A stretch of 64,000 nt of DNA from Nitrososphaeria archaeon (GTDB taxonomy: Archaea > Thermoproteota > Nitrososphaeria > Conexivisphaerales > UBA164). The DNA lies in NCBI GenBank assembly GCA_049976505.1, contig JBMFIC010000004.1, forward strand, positions 27,512 through 91,511, written 5' to 3'. This document shows, one piece after another, positions 22,900 to 31,301 of this stretch (within the stretch, counting starts at the first letter, position 1; each line of letters opens with the position of its first letter). Under the pieces are notes generated by a model. It was not told the origin of the DNA. It did no database searches and saw only the letters and a list, made by a program, of their open reading frames with translations. A program made the position numbers and the translations under genes.

Positions 22900-23250
22900 C
22901 TCATGTTTCTTAGGAACACCACAACCCTGTCCCGAGCTGCATGTAAAAGCGCTTTAAAAACACCTTTCTGGTGTACTCTGTTCATGATTGGAAACCAGAA
23001 TCGTTTATCCACCTTACAATGTTTTTACAATGTCTTCCGTTTTTGCTCCTTTAAAGTTCACGCCCATATACAGTCTGACGCTGAAAAGCGTTGTAGCGTA
23101 CTTCGCGATACAGCCGGTGTTCAGATCTCTGCTCTCCAGATTGCCCAAGTATTTGAGCAGTAGAGCTCTGTCTTCTTTGGAATCCTCTCGTAGCTCTTGA
23201 TTTTTCGAATGCCCACACAAGTTTCTTTCTGCGGTGTGTACATCTTCCCG
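22900..23250 (-). pseudogene. Decayed N-terminal part of a tyrosine integrase paralogous to 27148-28176
   Basis: DVHTAERNL...KN...LNTGCIAKY... and VRWINDSGFQS*TEYTRKVFLKRF align with DIHNYEARL...KN...LNKGRVAKY... and LWLNGSHYSPHTKSDFKKILKRF of the intact integrase. It has a stop codon and no catalytic domain. Confidence 0.75.
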
Positions 23251-23307
23251 TCCTTCATGTTATATTATAAACTGGAGTTTTCTCCAAACACAGAACCGTA
23301 GATGAGG

Positions 23308-23326
23308 ACGCCCTAGCCGGGTTGAA
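23308..23326 (-). repeat. Degenerate att copy of the tRNA-Asp 3' end
   Basis: ACGCCCTAGCCGGG-TTGAA versus ACGCCCTGGCCGGGATTTGAA at 28230-28250 (13/14 identity in the core). Confidence 0.65.
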
Positions 23327-23573
23327 AGCTTTACGGGTTCTAATCTCTTCTAAGACTAATTAAAAATTTAAAGCATCAAACCGTGCATGATTAACCAGAT
23401 CTATTCAAAGCCTTTTAGCTCAGCCAGAAAAGCATATGATAATTCTTCCCTTAAATCATACCTATCTGACAAAAATAGTGCTAACCTTTAGGACAAACCA
23501 ACTTATTCATTATAATATAACATTTATTCTGCAAAAATATATTTTTAATTTAACAAACTTTACTTTCATTTGC

Positions 23574-25283
23574 TTACTCTAAAAAGTCATTTATGTTTAT
23601 ATACAATCCAAATTTTGTTAATCTTTGTCCTATTATAGCCGTGTCATTTGGTTTGATCTTAGCTATTTCAAGTTTTTCATTTTGATTAAACACGTACTCA
23701 ATTGGGCCATCAAGTAAGATCTCTCCGTTATTTAACACTACTGCTCTGTTACAATATTTTGCAACGAATGTCATATCATGAGTTATTATTATTATTGTTT
23801 TCCCCGCTTTATTGAGAGAACTCAAAAATTTTAAGATCTTGTCAGCTTGTGGAAAATCTTGACCAGTAGTCGGCTCATCGACAATTATAACTTCTGGTTC
23901 CATAGCTAATATTGAGGCTATTGCAACTTTTTGTCTCCACCCTTTGCTTAGAGTAAATGGGTTTTCATTGGCATAACTTTCAGGCAATCCAACTATTTCC
24001 ATTGCCTTGGTTACTCTTCGAACGAGTTCATCTCCCTTAATTCCTAAATTTTTAGGGCCGTAAGCTATTTCATCGAAAACGGTTTGTTCAAAGAGTTGAT
24101 GATCAGGATTTTGAAATATGTATCCTACTTTTGAAGCGACATCTTTTATTTTTGCTCGTGTAACATCCTTTCCATCTATAATTAATTGGCCTTCTGTTGG
24201 TTTTAGAATTCCAGCCATTATTTTAGCCAAGGTCGTTTTTCCTGAGCCATTTTGTCCTATAATAGCTACAAATTCCCCCTTATATATATCTAAATTTATT
24301 CCCTTTAAAGCCAGTGTGCCATCAGGATAGGTATATCTAATTTCTTTCATTTGAATCATTTTTTTTGACGGATCTTTATATGAGGGTTTTTCTTTAATTT
24401 GTGGAAGATCGTCCTTTTTTATTTTACTTAATATGTTATTAAATTTTCCAAGAAACTCCTCCAATGACAGAGATATAGGTCTGTTGAGTAGGTTTCTATG
24501 TATAAAATAATTTTCAATTATATTAAATTCTGGCGGATAAATTCCATGATTAATTAGTTCTTTTGGATCGCTAAAAAATTCTTCAGGCGGCATTGCTTTT
24601 ATTATTTCTCCTTTTTCAAGTAGCACTATCCTGTCAGCCAACTTCATTAATCTGTCAAATCTGTGTTCGGCGATTATAACTGTCATGTTATAATTATCGT
24701 GAATATTTTTTATAACATCAAGTATTTCCGTTTTCCCTAAAGGATCAAGTTGGCTTGTAGGTTCATCAAGAACCAATATAGGCGGTCTCCTTGCTATGAC
24801 AGACGCTATAGCAACTCTTTGTTTTTGACCTCCGCTTAATTCATAAGGCGCTTTGTTCAGATATTCATATGGCAGATTTACTACATCCATCGCCCATTTT
24901 ATCCTATCACGTATTTCATCTATAGGGAGTCCTGCGTTTTCTAATGAAAATGCTATTTCTTCTTCAACGGTCATTGTTAAGAATTGGCTTTCGGGGTCTG
25001 AAAAAACATAACCAACCTTCTCAGATAGAACCTGTGTACTTGATTTCTGCGTATCAATGCCATCTACAATTACTTTGCCTTCCATGATTCCTCGTAAGGT
25101 ATGAGGAATCAAACCGTTTATACACATCAACAAAGAGGTTTTGCCGGAATCATTAGCACCTGCAATTACTACGAATTCGCCTTTGTTTATTGTAAGATTT
25201 ATATTATTTAACGCCTTTTCTTTTGTGCCTAAATATCTCCAGCTTAAATTTTCAAATTTAATTATTTCACTCATCTTTATCAC
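23574..25283 (-). CDS. ECF transporter ATPase with two fused ABC domains (EcfA-A')
   Basis: Two Walker A motifs (GANDSGKT, GQNGSGKT), signatures LSGGQKQR and LSKGWRQK, two DEPT motifs, and FQNPDHQLF. Confidence 0.9.
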   Translation of the reverse strand: MIKMSEIIKFENLSWRYLGTKEKALNNINLTINKGEFVVIAGANDSGKTSLLMCINGLIPHTLRGIMEGKVIVDGIDTQKSSTQVLSEKVGYVFSDPESQFLTMTVEEEIAFSLENAGLPIDEIRDRIKWAMDVVNLPYEYLNKAPYELSGGQKQRVAIASVIARRPPILVLDEPTSQLDPLGKTEILDVIKNIHDNYNMTVIIAEHRFDRLMKLADRIVLLEKGEIIKAMPPEEFFSDPKELINHGIYPPEFNIIENYFIHRNLLNRPISLSLEEFLGKFNNILSKIKKDDLPQIKEKPSYKDPSKKMIQMKEIRYTYPDGTLALKGINLDIYKGEFVAIIGQNGSGKTTLAKIMAGILKPTEGQLIIDGKDVTRAKIKDVASKVGYIFQNPDHQLFEQTVFDEIAYGPKNLGIKGDELVRRVTKAMEIVGLPESYANENPFTLSKGWRQKVAIASILAMEPEVIIVDEPTTGQDFPQADKILKFLSSLNKAGKTIIIITHDMTFVAKYCNRAVVLNNGEILLDGPIEYVFNQNEKLEIAKIKPNDTAIIGQRLTKFGLYININDFLE

Positions 25284-26140
25284 TATATTAGTAAACTAGT
25301 TATGGATTTAGTAATTGTAAACCATCCCAAATAGTCGCCCAACAATATTATACTTAACAATGCAAATAATATTAATAGTACTAAAATGTCTAATGGCCCT
25401 ACATGATATTGACTTAAAATATAATCGGTTCTTTTAATTTTTTGTTTACTAAACAACATAAAACCTCTTGCATCCAGAGCCAAAGATACATCTTCTGCTC
25501 TTCTTAATAGGACGGCTAAAAGTGGAATCACATATAAACCGTACTGCTTTATCTTTTCCATAATGGGCAATGATGAAAGATCAAAAGCCCTAGCCTTCTG
25601 TGCTTCTTGTATAGTGAAAAAATCTATTAGTGAAAGACTTATAGCTCTTAATGCCAATCCTGCAACTAGGCTTATAGTGTATGGTATCTTTAAAAAACGT
25701 AGCCCTTGCACAACTTCTCTTTCTCTGGTCGTTGAAAGAAAAAATATAACCACAAACACAGCAAAAATCAATTTCATAGCAGTGACTAGAGCAAATACTT
25801 CATTTTCATAGCTAATTATTATTGGACCTATGCGATATAAAATTGTATAAGTTGGAGCATAACCGCCTGCGAAAGTATAAACAACCACTACAATAGCAAT
25901 TAAACTAACAATAATGTATTTGTAGTTTTTAAGTATTGAGAGTTCTACTTTAGAAATTTTCAATAAAATAATCATGGTTATTAACCCTAAAGCATTAATT
26001 CCAGGCGTATTAATTAAAAGGGGATACGCGCTAACGATAAGTAAAAATGCTATTTTTGTTATTGGGTGTAATTTATAGATAGGAGAATTTACTGGCATAT
26101 ACCCAAATAATGTTTTAATCATTTTTTTCTCCAATTTCAA
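25283..26140 (-). CDS. ECF transporter T component
   Basis: LHPITKIAF start, QEAQKARA and LALDARGF X-R-X motifs. Confidence 0.85.
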   Translation of the reverse strand: MKLEKKMIKTLFGYMPVNSPIYKLHPITKIAFLLIVSAYPLLINTPGINALGLITMIILLKISKVELSILKNYKYIIVSLIAIVVVVYTFAGGYAPTYTILYRIGPIIISYENEVFALVTAMKLIFAVFVVIFFLSTTREREVVQGLRFLKIPYTISLVAGLALRAISLSLIDFFTIQEAQKARAFDLSSLPIMEKIKQYGLYVIPLLAVLLRRAEDVSLALDARGFMLFSKQKIKRTDYILSQYHVGPLDILVLLILFALLSIILLGDYLGWFTITKSITSLLI

Positions 26141-26160
26141 TCACTAAAAAAATAACGTAT

Positions 26161-26796
26161 TCATGCAAGCCATCCCTTGCAGAATGCGCGTGATTTAATA
26201 ACCATGTTAGAGAGCGCTTTTAGCACAATTATGCCAAATATCAAACTTGGAACACCATTCCCTATTACCCAACCGCTAAAAAACAAGGGAGCTGAGGTAA
26301 CTGTAATCAAGTGCAACGCATTTAGTGCTGTTACTGCCCATGTAGCTCCTAAAATGTTATTTATAATTACTGCAGATAAAATATATGCAACATACCCTTT
26401 CCAACTGTTTAACCTTGGATCTATTTTCAAGTATTTAAAAGTCAAAAAAGGAATGAGTCCCTGAACAAAATTTGAAGGAAAATACGCTAAACTAACATAT
26501 AGCGGTGCTCCGGCTAGAGCGTTACTTATAAAAGGAAATATTGCGCCAGCCAATATACCCCATAAACCAAACCATATTGAACCAACAGCTTGAACTGCGA
26601 CCCCCGGCCAGAATCCTGAGACACCATATCCTAACGGCACTGCAATGCTTCCGAACGCTCCTGTAACTGCACCTATTCCTATTAATAAAGCGAAAACAGC
26701 TACATGTATAGAACCTGGTTTCCTCTTTTCTCCTTCTTCATATACCCATGGATTTTGTTCTTTTTTTAAATTTGTAGATTGTATTATTTTTACCAT
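26161..26796 (-). CDS. Putative ECF S (substrate-binding) component
   Basis: About 6 TM segments in ~200 aa; first gene of the S-T-A operon. Confidence 0.7.
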   Translation of the reverse strand: MVKIIQSTNLKKEQNPWVYEEGEKRKPGSIHVAVFALLIGIGAVTGAFGSIAVPLGYGVSGFWPGVAVQAVGSIWFGLWGILAGAIFPFISNALAGAPLYVSLAYFPSNFVQGLIPFLTFKYLKIDPRLNSWKGYVAYILSAVIINNILGATWAVTALNALHLITVTSAPLFFSGWVIGNGVPSLIFGIIVLKALSNMVIKSRAFCKGWLA

Positions 26797-27147
26797 CGCT
26801 TTTATTTAAGATGAACCGTTTTATATACTTTTCGCTCCCATTAAAACTATCCAATAATTAGTTAAACATAGCAAAACTTAACTGATTATTGGCGCAGGAA
26901 AATGGGTTCGTTTGCTTATATTGCCGGTAAGCAGTCATTATATTAGCAATTTTCTGAAAAATGGGCATAGTTTAAGCTAGGTATCTCCTCAGCGTGTAAG
27001 CGTTAAAGGAACAGGCTGGTCCACCTTTGGGATCTGTAGCATGCTATTATGTCATGCAGTATTGCTACGAGCGTTGTTCCCTTGATCTTGCTCTCGCTAG
27101 ACCTGTAATATAACCTTATACATTTTTTGTTATGTTGCTAAAGACCC

Positions 27148-28176
27148 TCAGCAAGCTTTCTCCTGCCCGCACTTCGGGCATATTATCGGCGCGAACTTCG
27201 GCCTGATCGTTTCAACGGGCCTGCCCGCGTAGATGGCCAGGAGCTTGTCGTCCAGGTCCGCCCCTGAAAGGTGTGCATATGTTCCGGGCATGCTTGAGTC
27301 TCCAGCCCAGCCATACTTCAGGATCAGCTCCCTGTCGCTCAGGTACCTTGAGTCCCTCGTGGCAGCGGTGTGCCTGAAGAGATGCGGGTATATCCGCTTC
27401 TGAACCCCGGCCTTCCTGGCGATCTCCTTGAGGATCCTGGCGGCTTTCTGGTAGCTCAGCGGCCTGTCGACGTGCTTCCTGTTTGGGCTCAGGCTTGGCC
27501 ATAGGAACGCATCAGGATCCCTGGATCTTGGATGCTCCTCGATCCATTTCGCCAGCGCTGCGGCTGAGGTGATCAGCCTTACAATCCTCGGCCCTGTCTT
27601 TCCTGTGACAACAATCCTTGCCCCCCTTTCATCGAACGTTACGTCCTTTATGCGAGCTGGCAGTATTTCGCCTATTCTGAACCCCCCTTCCGCAAGCACC
27701 GCGATCAGGGCCCTGTCCCTTGCGTTGCCTGCCGCTTTTATCATCGACTCGATCTCGTCATCTGTCAGAACCTCTATCTTCTTCCTTTCGTTGGGCTTGA
27801 CCTCGACCTGAATCCACGAAACCTCAGGAGGAAAGGGAACTGATTTGTCCAGGGAACCCGTCTTTAGCCACTTTATAAACCGCTTTAGAATCTTCTTAAA
27901 GTCGCTTTTGGTGTGCGGACTGTAATGAGAGCCGTTAAGCCATAGCATTAACTCCTCCACGTCCTTCTTAGTGAGATCCCTGAAAGGCTTATTTATCCTC
28001 CTTGCCAGTATGGCTAAGCTGTAGATGTATTTGGCAACCCTGCCTTTGTTAAGGCCCATCGAGGCGAGCAATTCGGCAAACTCCTTTATTGCGAGCTTGT
28101 TCTCTTCCAGAATGTCAGCTTTTTCCAGGTTCTTGTAGGTGTTCGCAAGCCTGGCTTCATAGTTATGTATGTCCAA
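27148..28176 (-). CDS. Tyrosine recombinase/integrase with a truncated C-terminus
   Basis: Catalytic set GGFRIGE (R), KTG (K), HLFRH, GW and TYAHL (Y). Ends after a single CPKC. Likely start is TTG 28176 with an upstream GGGAG. Confidence 0.9.
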   Translation of the reverse strand: MDIHNYEARLANTYKNLEKADILEENKLAIKEFAELLASMGLNKGRVAKYIYSLAILARRINKPFRDLTKKDVEELMLWLNGSHYSPHTKSDFKKILKRFIKWLKTGSLDKSVPFPPEVSWIQVEVKPNERKKIEVLTDDEIESMIKAAGNARDRALIAVLAEGGFRIGEILPARIKDVTFDERGARIVVTGKTGPRIVRLITSAAALAKWIEEHPRSRDPDAFLWPSLSPNRKHVDRPLSYQKAARILKEIARKAGVQKRIYPHLFRHTAATRDSRYLSDRELILKYGWAGDSSMPGTYAHLSGADLDDKLLAIYAGRPVETIRPKFAPIICPKCGQEKAC

Positions 28177-28230
28177 CTTTTTCTCCCTATTATTAAATGC
28201 AAAATTGGGATCCATACCCAACAGAAGATA

Positions 28231-28303
28231 CGCCCTGGCCGGGATTTGAACCCGGGTCACGGCGGTGACAGCGCCGCATACTAGGCCGCTATACTACCAG
28301 GGC
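28231..28303 (-). tRNA. tRNA-Asp(GTC)
   Basis: Acceptor stem GCCCTGG/CCAGGGC, anticodon arm CGGCG-CTGTCAC-CGCCG, T arm CCGGG-TTCAAAT-CCCGG. CCA is not encoded. TATA-like AAAAATTTAAA upstream. Confidence 0.97.
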
Positions 28304-28329: not shown

Positions 28330-29697
28330 TTAAATTTTTCTCTCTTTCTCCTTAATGCCCCCGTTCAGGAGCGTCTGAAGGAACGTGTCCCTAACAGGCC
28401 TGTAAACCCTCTCGAAGAAGAGCCTCTGGTCCTCAAGGTACTCGCGTGGAAACTTCCTCAGGTACTCAAGGGCCTCGTTCCAGGCCCTGTCGTAGCTTAC
28501 AATGGAGCTTATCTTCATAGCTATCTCCCTGTCGTAGTCCGATGGGGTCTGAACCCTGTCGCCTATCCTGAACAGCCCCGTCGAAGTATCGACAGGAGCC
28601 TCCTCGTTCCCAACCCTCTCAAAGACCTCCTTCCTCTGGCCTTCTTTCCCCTGCTCTGAGACTGGTGTCCTGGAGCCTCCCTTCCTGGCAGGCCCGTAGT
28701 ATTTAGCCCAGGCATAAAATATTGCCCTGTTGAGCCCGAAGGACTTGGCCCTGTTCAGGTCTCCCTTCAGAAGATAGTACCTGGCAGCCTGAAGCAGTCC
28801 CATTACCTGGAACCTTCCAGCTCCCACAGCAGCCCTCTGAGGCCTTGTCCTTACTGCACTCTGAGGGGACTGTGTTCCTGAGGGGGTGCTCTTCACCGCA
28901 AGCTCTGCGAGCTCATCCGCTTCACCCCTTTCAAACTCCCTCCAGTAGGGGCTGTGCCTAAAGCTCTCAGGATCAGCCCACTGTATGTCGAATGAGCTGA
29001 TCTCGTTTGGCTTGAAGACGACGCAGGAGAGGTTCAGGAAGCGGTGAAGGGAGAGGGGCACCGTGAAGAGCCTCTGTATGTCCATCCTGTTCTCAACCCT
29101 CAGCTCCCTCTCAGCGTTCTTCGCGGAGCGCGATAGCTGGCCAACCTTTTCGCTCACCTCCGATATTATGAGGTCGACGACGGCCCTTGCAACTTTGACA
29201 GGGCCATACCTCTGAAGGACCTCTTCGGAGAAGGCGTTCTCGTTGATGTGAACGTGCACGCCCCTGCCTGACCACTTCAGGTACACGGACTTTATGACCC
29301 CGTGCCTTTCGAGCGCCCCGACTATCTCCTCAGCTGCCTTCAGCGTTATCCTCCAGTCCTCCAGGGAGGCGTCAATGTCAAAGACAGGGGTAACCCTAAA
29401 CACGTTGCTCTCGTCCCTTAGCCCATCTGCTGCAAGTCTTCTGTACACGTTTGCGGTGGCGTAGATGGTCCTGAAGCTGAAGCGGGAGAACCTGTTGAAG
29501 AGCGAAATATAATCAGACTCGCTGCCTATTGAGAGAGGAACGCCCCTGTCGTACCTTATGAAGAGCCTCTCGCCCCCAGAGGGGGCCTCCAGAGCCACCC
29601 ATCTGCCCTTCGAGTACTCCACTATCTCCCTCTTCACGTCGTCCCTCATGTAATAGTCCCTTACCGCCTGAGGCTCCACGATGCCCTCTTCGCCCAT
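28330..29697 (-). CDS. Archaeo-eukaryotic primase (AEP) superfamily domain fused to an uncharacterised C-terminal domain
   Basis: Motif I VFDID, motif II KWSGRGVHVH, motif III MDIQRLFTVPLSLH. An S/T/P/Q-rich linker is followed by GRFQVMGLLQAARYY...SFGLNRAIFYAWAK. Confidence 0.75.
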   Translation of the reverse strand: MGEEGIVEPQAVRDYYMRDDVKREIVEYSKGRWVALEAPSGGERLFIRYDRGVPLSIGSESDYISLFNRFSRFSFRTIYATANVYRRLAADGLRDESNVFRVTPVFDIDASLEDWRITLKAAEEIVGALERHGVIKSVYLKWSGRGVHVHINENAFSEEVLQRYGPVKVARAVVDLIISEVSEKVGQLSRSAKNAERELRVENRMDIQRLFTVPLSLHRFLNLSCVVFKPNEISSFDIQWADPESFRHSPYWREFERGEADELAELAVKSTPSGTQSPQSAVRTRPQRAAVGAGRFQVMGLLQAARYYLLKGDLNRAKSFGLNRAIFYAWAKYYGPARKGGSRTPVSEQGKEGQRKEVFERVGNEEAPVDTSTGLFRIGDRVQTPSDYDREIAMKISSIVSYDRAWNEALEYLRKFPREYLEDQRLFFERVYRPVRDTFLQTLLNGGIKEKERKI

Positions 29698-29797
29698 CAA
29701 TCTTAAACGCAGTATGATCAAAATTTTTTGGTCTCGGGATAAACACGCGGAAAACCCGGATAAAGGATAAAGGACGTCAAATTTCCTATAATAATAT

Positions 29798-31010: not shown

Positions 31011-31301
31011 CTATTCGTTAATAACCCTCAGCTCGCCGTATCTTCCAACGTTGAGCCTCTTTACCCCTCTGTACGTGTTGACGTATCCGTTCCTTACCTC
31101 CACCGTGTCCCCTTCCTTTACCATGTCTATCTGCTCGTTCCAGAGGTTTAGGACTATGCTTCCTGATTCGTCCTCGAGGACGGCCTCAGCGACCCTAGAC
31201 TCGCCCCTTGACGTGTTAACGCTCTTTGCCTCGGAAATCTTCGTTATCCTGCCTATCACGCTCACGTTTCTGCTGTTCTCCCTTATCTCTGATATTTTCA
31301 A
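31011..31301 (-). CDS. ssb: Single-OB-fold single-stranded DNA-binding protein
   Basis: MKISEI...V.VIGRITKISE...VAEAVLEDESGSIVLNLW...GDTVEVRNGYV...LNVGRYG. Confidence 0.85.
   Translation of the reverse strand: MKISEIRENSRNVSVIGRITKISEAKSVNTSRGESRVAEAVLEDESGSIVLNLWNEQIDMVKEGDTVEVRNGYVNTYRGVKRLNVGRYGELRVINE

Follow-up and report, generated by a model that had tools for sequence, protein, structure and literature searches.

What use has an archaeon of hot environments that already encodes a replicative primase for an additional, unannotated enzyme from the superfamily of archaeo-eukaryotic primases (AEPs)? The question is raised by a gene on contig JBMFIC010000004.1 of a Nitrososphaeria archaeon (Conexivisphaerales, UBA164; assembly GCA_049976505.1), within the stretch of 64,000 nucleotides (positions 27,512 to 91,511) that we refer to as the window. 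The gene encodes an AEP domain joined by a linker to a C-terminal accessory domain, which we call C-dom. An earlier reading of the DNA, the original prediction, took the product for a PrimPol-like enzyme of repair or repriming. Our results support this, and the ranking of fold matches, together with the bacterial partners of C-dom (a ligase and PolX), favours repair over repriming. On balance, we lean towards a chromosomal, non-replicative repair polymerase of the AEP superfamily in which C-dom supplies DNA binding. In bacteria, the same C-dom is encoded immediately behind a DNA ligase of reduced size, and for this reason we regard the protein as a probable component of an undescribed system that repairs DNA gaps or breaks.

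The gene is part of a single open frame at 28330-29721 on the minus strand, which amounts to 463 aa when counted from the TTG at 29721. The likely start is the ATG at 29697, giving an intact coding sequence (CDS) of 455 aa. This start is favoured because the alignment of homologs begins there, a database entry (P0004) has the identical 455 aa, and an A/T-rich TATA-like box lies upstream (~17-32 nt 5' of the ATG). Residue numbers in the text and in Table 1 follow the 463-aa frame (TTG start), not the 455-aa protein.

The full-length AlphaFold model has a mean pLDDT of 87, with values mostly above 90 in the AEP domain. Exhaustive structural searches with VIA gave fold matches spanning residues 11-279. 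The top match is Prim-PolC (6sa0; Z 19.6, 251 residues aligned, root-mean-square deviation 3.8, 14% identity), followed by the Methanocella non-homologous end joining (NHEJ) polymerase (5dmu, Z 19.4) and LigD-Pol (2fao, Z 19.4; 2iru, Z 18.2). Human Pri1 (Z 15.8) and archaeal PriS (1zt2 and 1v33, Z 15.6) come after these, and CAPP (Z 11.9), human PrimPol (7jk1, Z 7.3) and pRN1 (3m1m, Z 5.3) are more distant. Foldseek agrees with this ranking (E 1e-6). The catalytic motifs, which the original prediction had described as intact, are all present where it placed them and show little or no variation across 35 homologs, whose identity to the window protein is 42-61%. As modelled, the N-terminal domain is thus a true AEP; its active site is complete, it has no Zn knuckle, and its nearest structural relatives are repair polymerases.

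Sequence profiles place the protein less closely. The PriS families PF01896 and TIGR00335 score 12.3 bits (under a cut-off of 26.8 bits) and 11 bits (versus a cut-off of 143.5), respectively, and the LigD_Prim-Pol family PF21686 gives no match to the window protein. Among the 35 relatives, PF01896 matches 11 at E values up to 1 (best 2.9e-5) and PF21686 matches three (E 0.022 or worse). The PriS-type Zn knuckle between motifs I and II is absent, and C233 is the only Cys of the whole protein. A domain scan found no helicase or P-loop domain in the window protein, as had been predicted. Thus, the protein belongs to the AEP superfamily by fold and by its three motifs, and falls outside both the PriS and the LigD-Pol/Prim-PolC families by their own tests.

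The low-complexity linker noticed in the original prediction is predicted to be disordered. C-dom, which follows it, folds alone with a pLDDT of 87 and a pTM of 0.82; the pTM of the whole protein is lower (0.62), which suggests that the AEP domain and C-dom are modelled without confident docking. The C-dom model contains two long helices and a basic, disordered loop, along with a helical bundle and a small sheet of three strands. The C-terminal blocks described earlier as conserved-looking proved to be so, as 21 positions in G302-K340 are invariant in the 35 homologs, and this block is also retained in the stand-alone archaeal and bacterial forms described below. Conservation of the catalytic motifs and of G302-K340 at these identities is far beyond chance. 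C-dom of the window protein has a pI of 9.7 and no Cys, in line with the predicted lack of Fe-S cysteines; none of the four 4Fe-4S Cys ligands of PriL-CTD occurs in residues 300-463. Also lacking after the AEP core are Cys/His cluster residues that could form a UL52-like Zn finger. The domain is uniformly basic in its fused and free forms (median pI 9.6, net charge +8 to +10), and the AEP core has a pI of 6.1.

We found no match for C-dom in Pfam or NCBIfam. Sequence profiles of PDB entries gave weak matches only (the Ku70 SAP domain at E 0.009, over the first two helices, and a TPR design at E 0.012). The best Foldseek match had E 1.4, the best match in the wide, exhaustive VIA search had Z 4.2 (none reached 5), and a search of the ESM Atlas returned solely clusters of the family itself. 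PriX, PriL-CTD, PriCT and LigD domains were absent among the Pfam/NCBIfam, PDB-profile, Foldseek and wide VIA matches, and such a missing match is no proof that the fold differs. The description of C-dom as a novel accessory domain agrees with these searches, in which it matched no characterised primase module.

C-dom also exists apart from the AEP domain. A C-dom profile searched against 1.84 billion representative proteins retrieved 257 clusters, many of them stand-alone proteins of 150-210 aa that align over their full length with the fused domain. Contigs sampled at one genome per species held at least 536 relatives, and we analysed gene neighbours at the best 80 loci, 38 of which are labelled bacterial. 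The archaeal sources among the 80 are Bathyarchaeia, Asgard lineages, Brockarchaeota and Conexivisphaerales; the bacterial sources include WOR-3, Thermodesulfobacteria, Aerophobetes, Calescamantes, Omnitrophota, Caldisericota and Chloroflexi, among others. Clustering of the neighbours showed that a gene for a ~190-aa mini-ligase adjoins the C-dom gene at 27 of the 38 loci labelled bacterial. Of an ATP-dependent DNA ligase, the mini-ligase has the adenylation domain alone (PF01068, E 1e-16 to 1e-20), with an invariant KxDG motif. In 21 of the 27 cases it lies directly upstream of the C-dom gene and in the same orientation; the intervals range from -36 to +121 nt, most of them being 2-12 nt or overlaps. 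A PolX-type gene is near the C-dom gene in six loci (five without and one with a mini-ligase); five of these genes encode a ~165-aa mini PolX of palm and thumb only, and one encodes a 572-aa member of the same cluster. The remaining bacterial neighbours of the ligase/C-dom pair are unrelated, with the exception of one methylpurine glycosylase.

C-dom is an independent evolutionary unit, fused to an AEP domain in Thermoproteota, free in other archaea, and, in bacteria, translationally coupled to a ligase of adenylation domain only (sometimes to a PolX of palm and thumb). One archaeal genus (g59 in our sample, with complete genomes of 1.6 Mb) has the two halves apart: a 170-aa gene of its own encodes C-dom, ~1.27 Mb away from that for the AEP, and an adenylate kinase gene lies upstream of it. 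This split form identifies C-dom as an autonomous module. A protein of 366 aa (P0160) has lost all three catalytic motifs from its AEP-like N-terminal domain and retains both C-dom and a tail resembling a PIP box, which suggests that C-dom has a function of its own.

Several individual loci deserve mention. Five WOR-3 loci (L070:3902-4959, L061, L067, L068 and L134) have the ~165-aa PolX beside the C-dom gene, sometimes with a mini-ligase as well. Overlapping open reading frames (ORFs) for a methylpurine DNA glycosylase, a mini-ligase and C-dom form one operon, with a flavour of base excision repair, in an Omnitrophota metagenome-assembled genome (L064:3812-5483). In a Caldisericota protein of 453 aa (L136:3626-4984), whose gene is followed by one for C-dom, ~270 residues that include DIDP and TGNG motifs come before a confirmed mini-ligase domain. 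This N-terminal half may be an AEP; hhalign gave only a weak match to the present AEP family (E 0.044, probability 1.2%). We also considered whether C-dom proteins of intermediate length are ligase fusions, and rejected this, as ten of them scanned against Pfam had no domain match. By BLAST against the N-terminal domain of the window protein, four are truncated AEP fusions and one is P0160.

C-dom has three kinds of partner. The AEP lacks PriL and a Zn knuckle, the ligase lacks OB and DNA-binding domains, and the PolX lacks its 8-kDa and fingers domains. All three are nucleotidyltransferases that lack the parts with which such enzymes usually bind DNA, and the most economical inference is that C-dom gives them DNA binding or recognition of gaps or ends. 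In the mechanism we propose, C-dom would supply this missing DNA-binding or end- and gap-recognition function. A flexible linker would tether the acidic AEP core to the basic ~165-aa C-dom, which would place the core on duplex DNA with a gap or break so that a short repair patch can be synthesised. A ligase would then seal the product; in the host genome this would be its single full-length ligase. In many orthologues, not including the window protein, a PIP-like tail would allow recruitment by the PCNA sliding clamp. More tentatively, C-dom could be a portable, hitherto unrecognised subunit for end and gap recognition that replaces the OB fold, the 8-kDa domain and PriL across three unrelated classes of nucleotidyltransferase, namely ATP-dependent ligase, PolX and AEP polymerase. 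Together, these proteins could form a Ku-independent gap and break repair system of thermophilic archaea and bacteria, with the gene in the window as the archaeal fused form.

It could be asked whether the bacterial partner is in fact an RNA ligase, and the substrate of the system RNA (for repair, tailing or RNA-templated synthesis). One mini-ligase also matches the RNA_ligase family (PF09414, E 4e-6), but the mini-ligases match ATP-dependent DNA ligases far better, with the E values given above. Weak structural matches of C-dom include the helical C-subdomain of the fungal tRNA ligase Trl1 (Z 3.5-3.6), although a Z of 3.5 is within noise. PolX and methylpurine DNA glycosylase are also among the C-dom neighbours, and we consider an RNA substrate quite improbable.

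A role as an auxiliary primase is less easily set aside, although we still judge it unlikely. Here C-dom, in the manner of PriX, PriL-CTD or the Zn finger of PrimPol, would hold the initiating nucleotide and the template and so permit de novo starts downstream of lesions. The N-terminal region follows the topology of PriS, which is also the family of the weak Pfam and TIGRFAM matches, yet the repair AEPs are structurally closer (Z 19.4-19.6) than PriS (~15.6). Helical accessory domains fused to AEPs are typical of primases (PMC5862659, PMC3973330, PMC10250227), but this protein offers no Zn or Fe-S ligand, and the same C-dom partners ligase and PolX, which do not prime. A Y-family polymerase for bypassing lesions is already encoded in the host genome, a point in favour of repriming.

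Returning to the repair polymerase that we prefer, several observations weigh against it. The weak sequence matches of the N-terminal domain go more often to PriS than to LigD-Pol, and this domain may have a priming function. The argument for DNA binding by C-dom draws on charge and gene context, with the match to the Ku70 SAP domain as one weak hint from sequence. No Ku and no mini-ligase were found in the host genome, which is 92% complete, and none of the archaeal stand-alone C-dom loci among the 80 has a ligase neighbour. Neither the window protein nor its closest relatives have a PIP-like tail. The neighbourhood of the AEP gene gives no help either: in 20 orthologous archaeal loci from ~12 families, compared with 8-kb flanks, there is no conserved neighbour, whether integrase, ssb, ligase or repair gene. 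The recurrent neighbours in this sample (aldolase, MarC, epimerase and thiolase) were judged unrelated.

The PIP-box-like tails (Q/S-x-T-L-D-x-F/L-F/L, e.g., ...QATLDQLF and ...STLDAFF) occur at the C-terminus of 29 of 119 long-form orthologues, compared with 0.7% of control windows. P0046, P0053, P0058, P0069, P0095, P0104 and P0118 are among the proteins that have them. Such tails suggest recruitment by PCNA in those lineages.

The family itself is large. We scored more than 557 full-length homologs. Each carries the label 'hypothetical' and lacks a Pfam domain; their source labels include Nitrososphaeria, Thermoprotei, Thermofilaceae, Desulfurococcaceae and Methanomethylicia, as well as some Asgard archaea. 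Matches were found in 169 of 401 sampled Thermoproteota genomes (~40%), and in none of the 56 genomes of one large family (f2) of the host's own class. The gene is typically single-copy, and second matches in a genome are short paralogs. Searches of the literature found no description of this AEP/C-dom family.

Table 1. Positions of the AEP gene, its domains and motifs, and the adjacent island in the window.
Feature	Coordinates	Strand	Evidence
Complete CDS, 455 aa	28330..29697	-	ORF, P0004, homolog alignment
Stop codon	28330-28332	-	ORF
AEP catalytic domain, residues 11-281	28879..29691	-	AlphaFold model, VIA, Foldseek
AEP motif I, D115-I-D117, metal-binding acidic pair	29371..29379	-	Invariant in 35 homologs
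AEP motif II, S151-G-R-G-V-H156 (SGRGVH)	29254..29271	-	S151, G152, G154 and H156 invariant in 35 homologs
AEP motif III, D214...R217..F-T-x-P222-x-S224-x-H226, DIQRLFTVPLSLH	29044..29082	-	D214, R217, P222, S224 and H226 invariant in 35 homologs
Disordered basic low-complexity linker, residues 282-299 (18 aa)	28825..28878	-	pLDDT <50; length and sequence vary among homologs
C-dom (C-terminal accessory domain), residues 300-463 (164 aa)	28333..28824	-	Stand-alone model; independent occurrence
Most conserved C-dom block, G302-K340, GRFQVMGLLQAARYY...SFGLNRAIFYAWAK (GRFQVM..LQAAR..KSFGLNRAIFYAWAK), two long basic helices	28702..28818	-	21 invariant positions in 35 fused homologs
Integrative island at tRNA-Asp	22900-28303		Low-GC ECF transporter genes 23574-26796

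The host genome (1.32 Mb in 63 contigs) encodes a canonical PriS of 334 aa (contig C7, 57 bits) with the Zn knuckle CRSCH...CPRC (CxxC...CxxC), as well as a PriL (contig C6, 87 bits), so the genome has a PriS apart from the window protein, and the original prediction, which had proposed a check for separate priS and priL genes, stands in this respect. We also identified one full-length ATP-dependent ligase (609-aa frame, contig C6). A third AEP, PriS-like and cut by a contig end, is on contig C27 (L002:1-834, minus strand; PF01896, 31 bits). It has the motifs VVDVDNY, SGARGFYIHV and DPMRVISVPHTLN, and adjoins a RadA/KaiC-like gene.

In the window, a tRNA-Asp gene (28231-28303) lies 27 nt past the stop of the AEP gene in minus-strand order. 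A gene for a XerA-like tyrosine recombinase (27148-28260) overlaps the 3' end of the tRNA and is followed by an ECF/ABC transporter operon of 33% GC. These genes could be read as the flank of an integrated mobile element, with the AEP as its replication primase-polymerase, as in pRN1, pTN2 or proviruses, since the recombinase and then the low-GC island with its ECF transporter come next in the same orientation. However, the tRNA-Asp separates the AEP gene from the integrase. As this tRNA is the integration site of the island, the AEP gene falls on its chromosomal side. Its GC content is host-like, as the original prediction had it (0.53 at 28-30 kb, as in most of the window, and 0.33 at 24-26 kb, in the island). 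The gene is typically single-copy, its product has no helicase, and the 20 orthologous loci have no integrase or other mobile-element neighbours. We therefore rejected an origin from a mobile element, which the tRNA-Asp boundary and the absence of integrases beside orthologues make very improbable. The gene is chromosomal and stand-alone as predicted, being outside the tRNA-bounded island and conserved in many genomes without an integrase. An SSB-like OB protein is encoded 1.3 kb away (31011-31301, minus strand), so the ssb reported near the gene is indeed there; its proximity counts for nothing, as the 20 other genomes do not share it.

Comparison with known AEPs places the window protein beside several of them without making it a member of any. 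Mycobacterial Prim-PolC (PolD1) works with LigC in excision repair (PDB 5op0, 6sa0; PMC5663958). Like it, the window protein is a non-replicative AEP without a Zn knuckle and has a thematic link to an ATP-dependent ligase. Unlike Prim-PolC, to which it has the low identity noted above, it carries C-dom, it is below the Pfam threshold for LigD_Prim-Pol, and the host has no ligase gene adjacent to it; the link to ligase is made by C-dom, in other lineages, rather than by the AEP itself. With LigD-Pol and the NHEJ polymerase of Methanocella paludicola (2fao, 2iru, 5dmu) it shares the AEP fold (Z 18-19.4) and the catalytic motifs, but it has no fused or neighbouring ligase or phosphoesterase, and Ku was not found in the host.

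The PriS/PriL/PriX primase belongs to the same superfamily, and the PriS-like N-terminal topology and weak PF01896 matches recall it. A helical accessory module that aids an AEP binding DNA poorly by itself is an idea in common with the archaeal primase (PMC12019639). The differences from PriS are the PF01896 score beneath the cut-off, the missing Zn knuckle, the separate PriS and PriL of the host, and a C-dom without Fe-S cysteines. In PolpTN2 (PMC3973330) and in the primase of Nanoarchaeum equitans (PMC10250227), too, one chain joins an AEP core to a C-terminal accessory domain, but that domain is related to PriL, whereas C-dom matched nothing known. Moreover, PolpTN2 is plasmid-borne and the N. 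equitans enzyme is the only primase of its organism, whereas the window protein is an additional AEP. Eukaryotic PrimPol is, similarly, a second, non-replicative AEP beside a replicative primase; it differs in its UL52-type Zn finger, and its structural similarity is much lower (Z 7.3 for 7jk1). The prim-pols of the pRN1 ORF904 type differ in having a helicase/ATPase domain and a mobile context, and are more distant still (3m1m, Z 5.3).

Gap and break repair without Ku and LigD in hyperthermophilic archaea is an open question. According to a 2025 study, Archaea had no reported Ku-independent NHEJ pathway; it proposed the replicative primase PriSL for break repair in Sulfolobales and does not mention this second AEP (PMC12019639). 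A second dedicated AEP bears on this question, being unannotated, conserved across homologs labelled from several classes and matched in ~40% of the sampled Thermoproteota genomes, with a domain that also accompanies minimal bacterial ligases and PolX. The assignment would also name a large family of 'hypothetical proteins', which offers compact thermostable polymerase and ligase modules.

The AEP family has three architectures. In addition to the long form present in the window, there is a short form of ~295 aa that ends in a basic tail and 'PLDxxIxxWLKK', and a form of ~400 aa with a different conserved helical C-terminus (LEDILSHYVLG...WLLSHGPP). In a quick maximum-likelihood tree, the long forms stand apart, across one branch (SH-aLRT 97), from those that are short or ~400 aa in length, and the host PriS is on a very long branch. 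Paralogs of the short and ~400-aa forms, both unannotated, are present in many Thermoproteota (L040-L059, e.g., L040:5998-6864 and L043:5632-6834).

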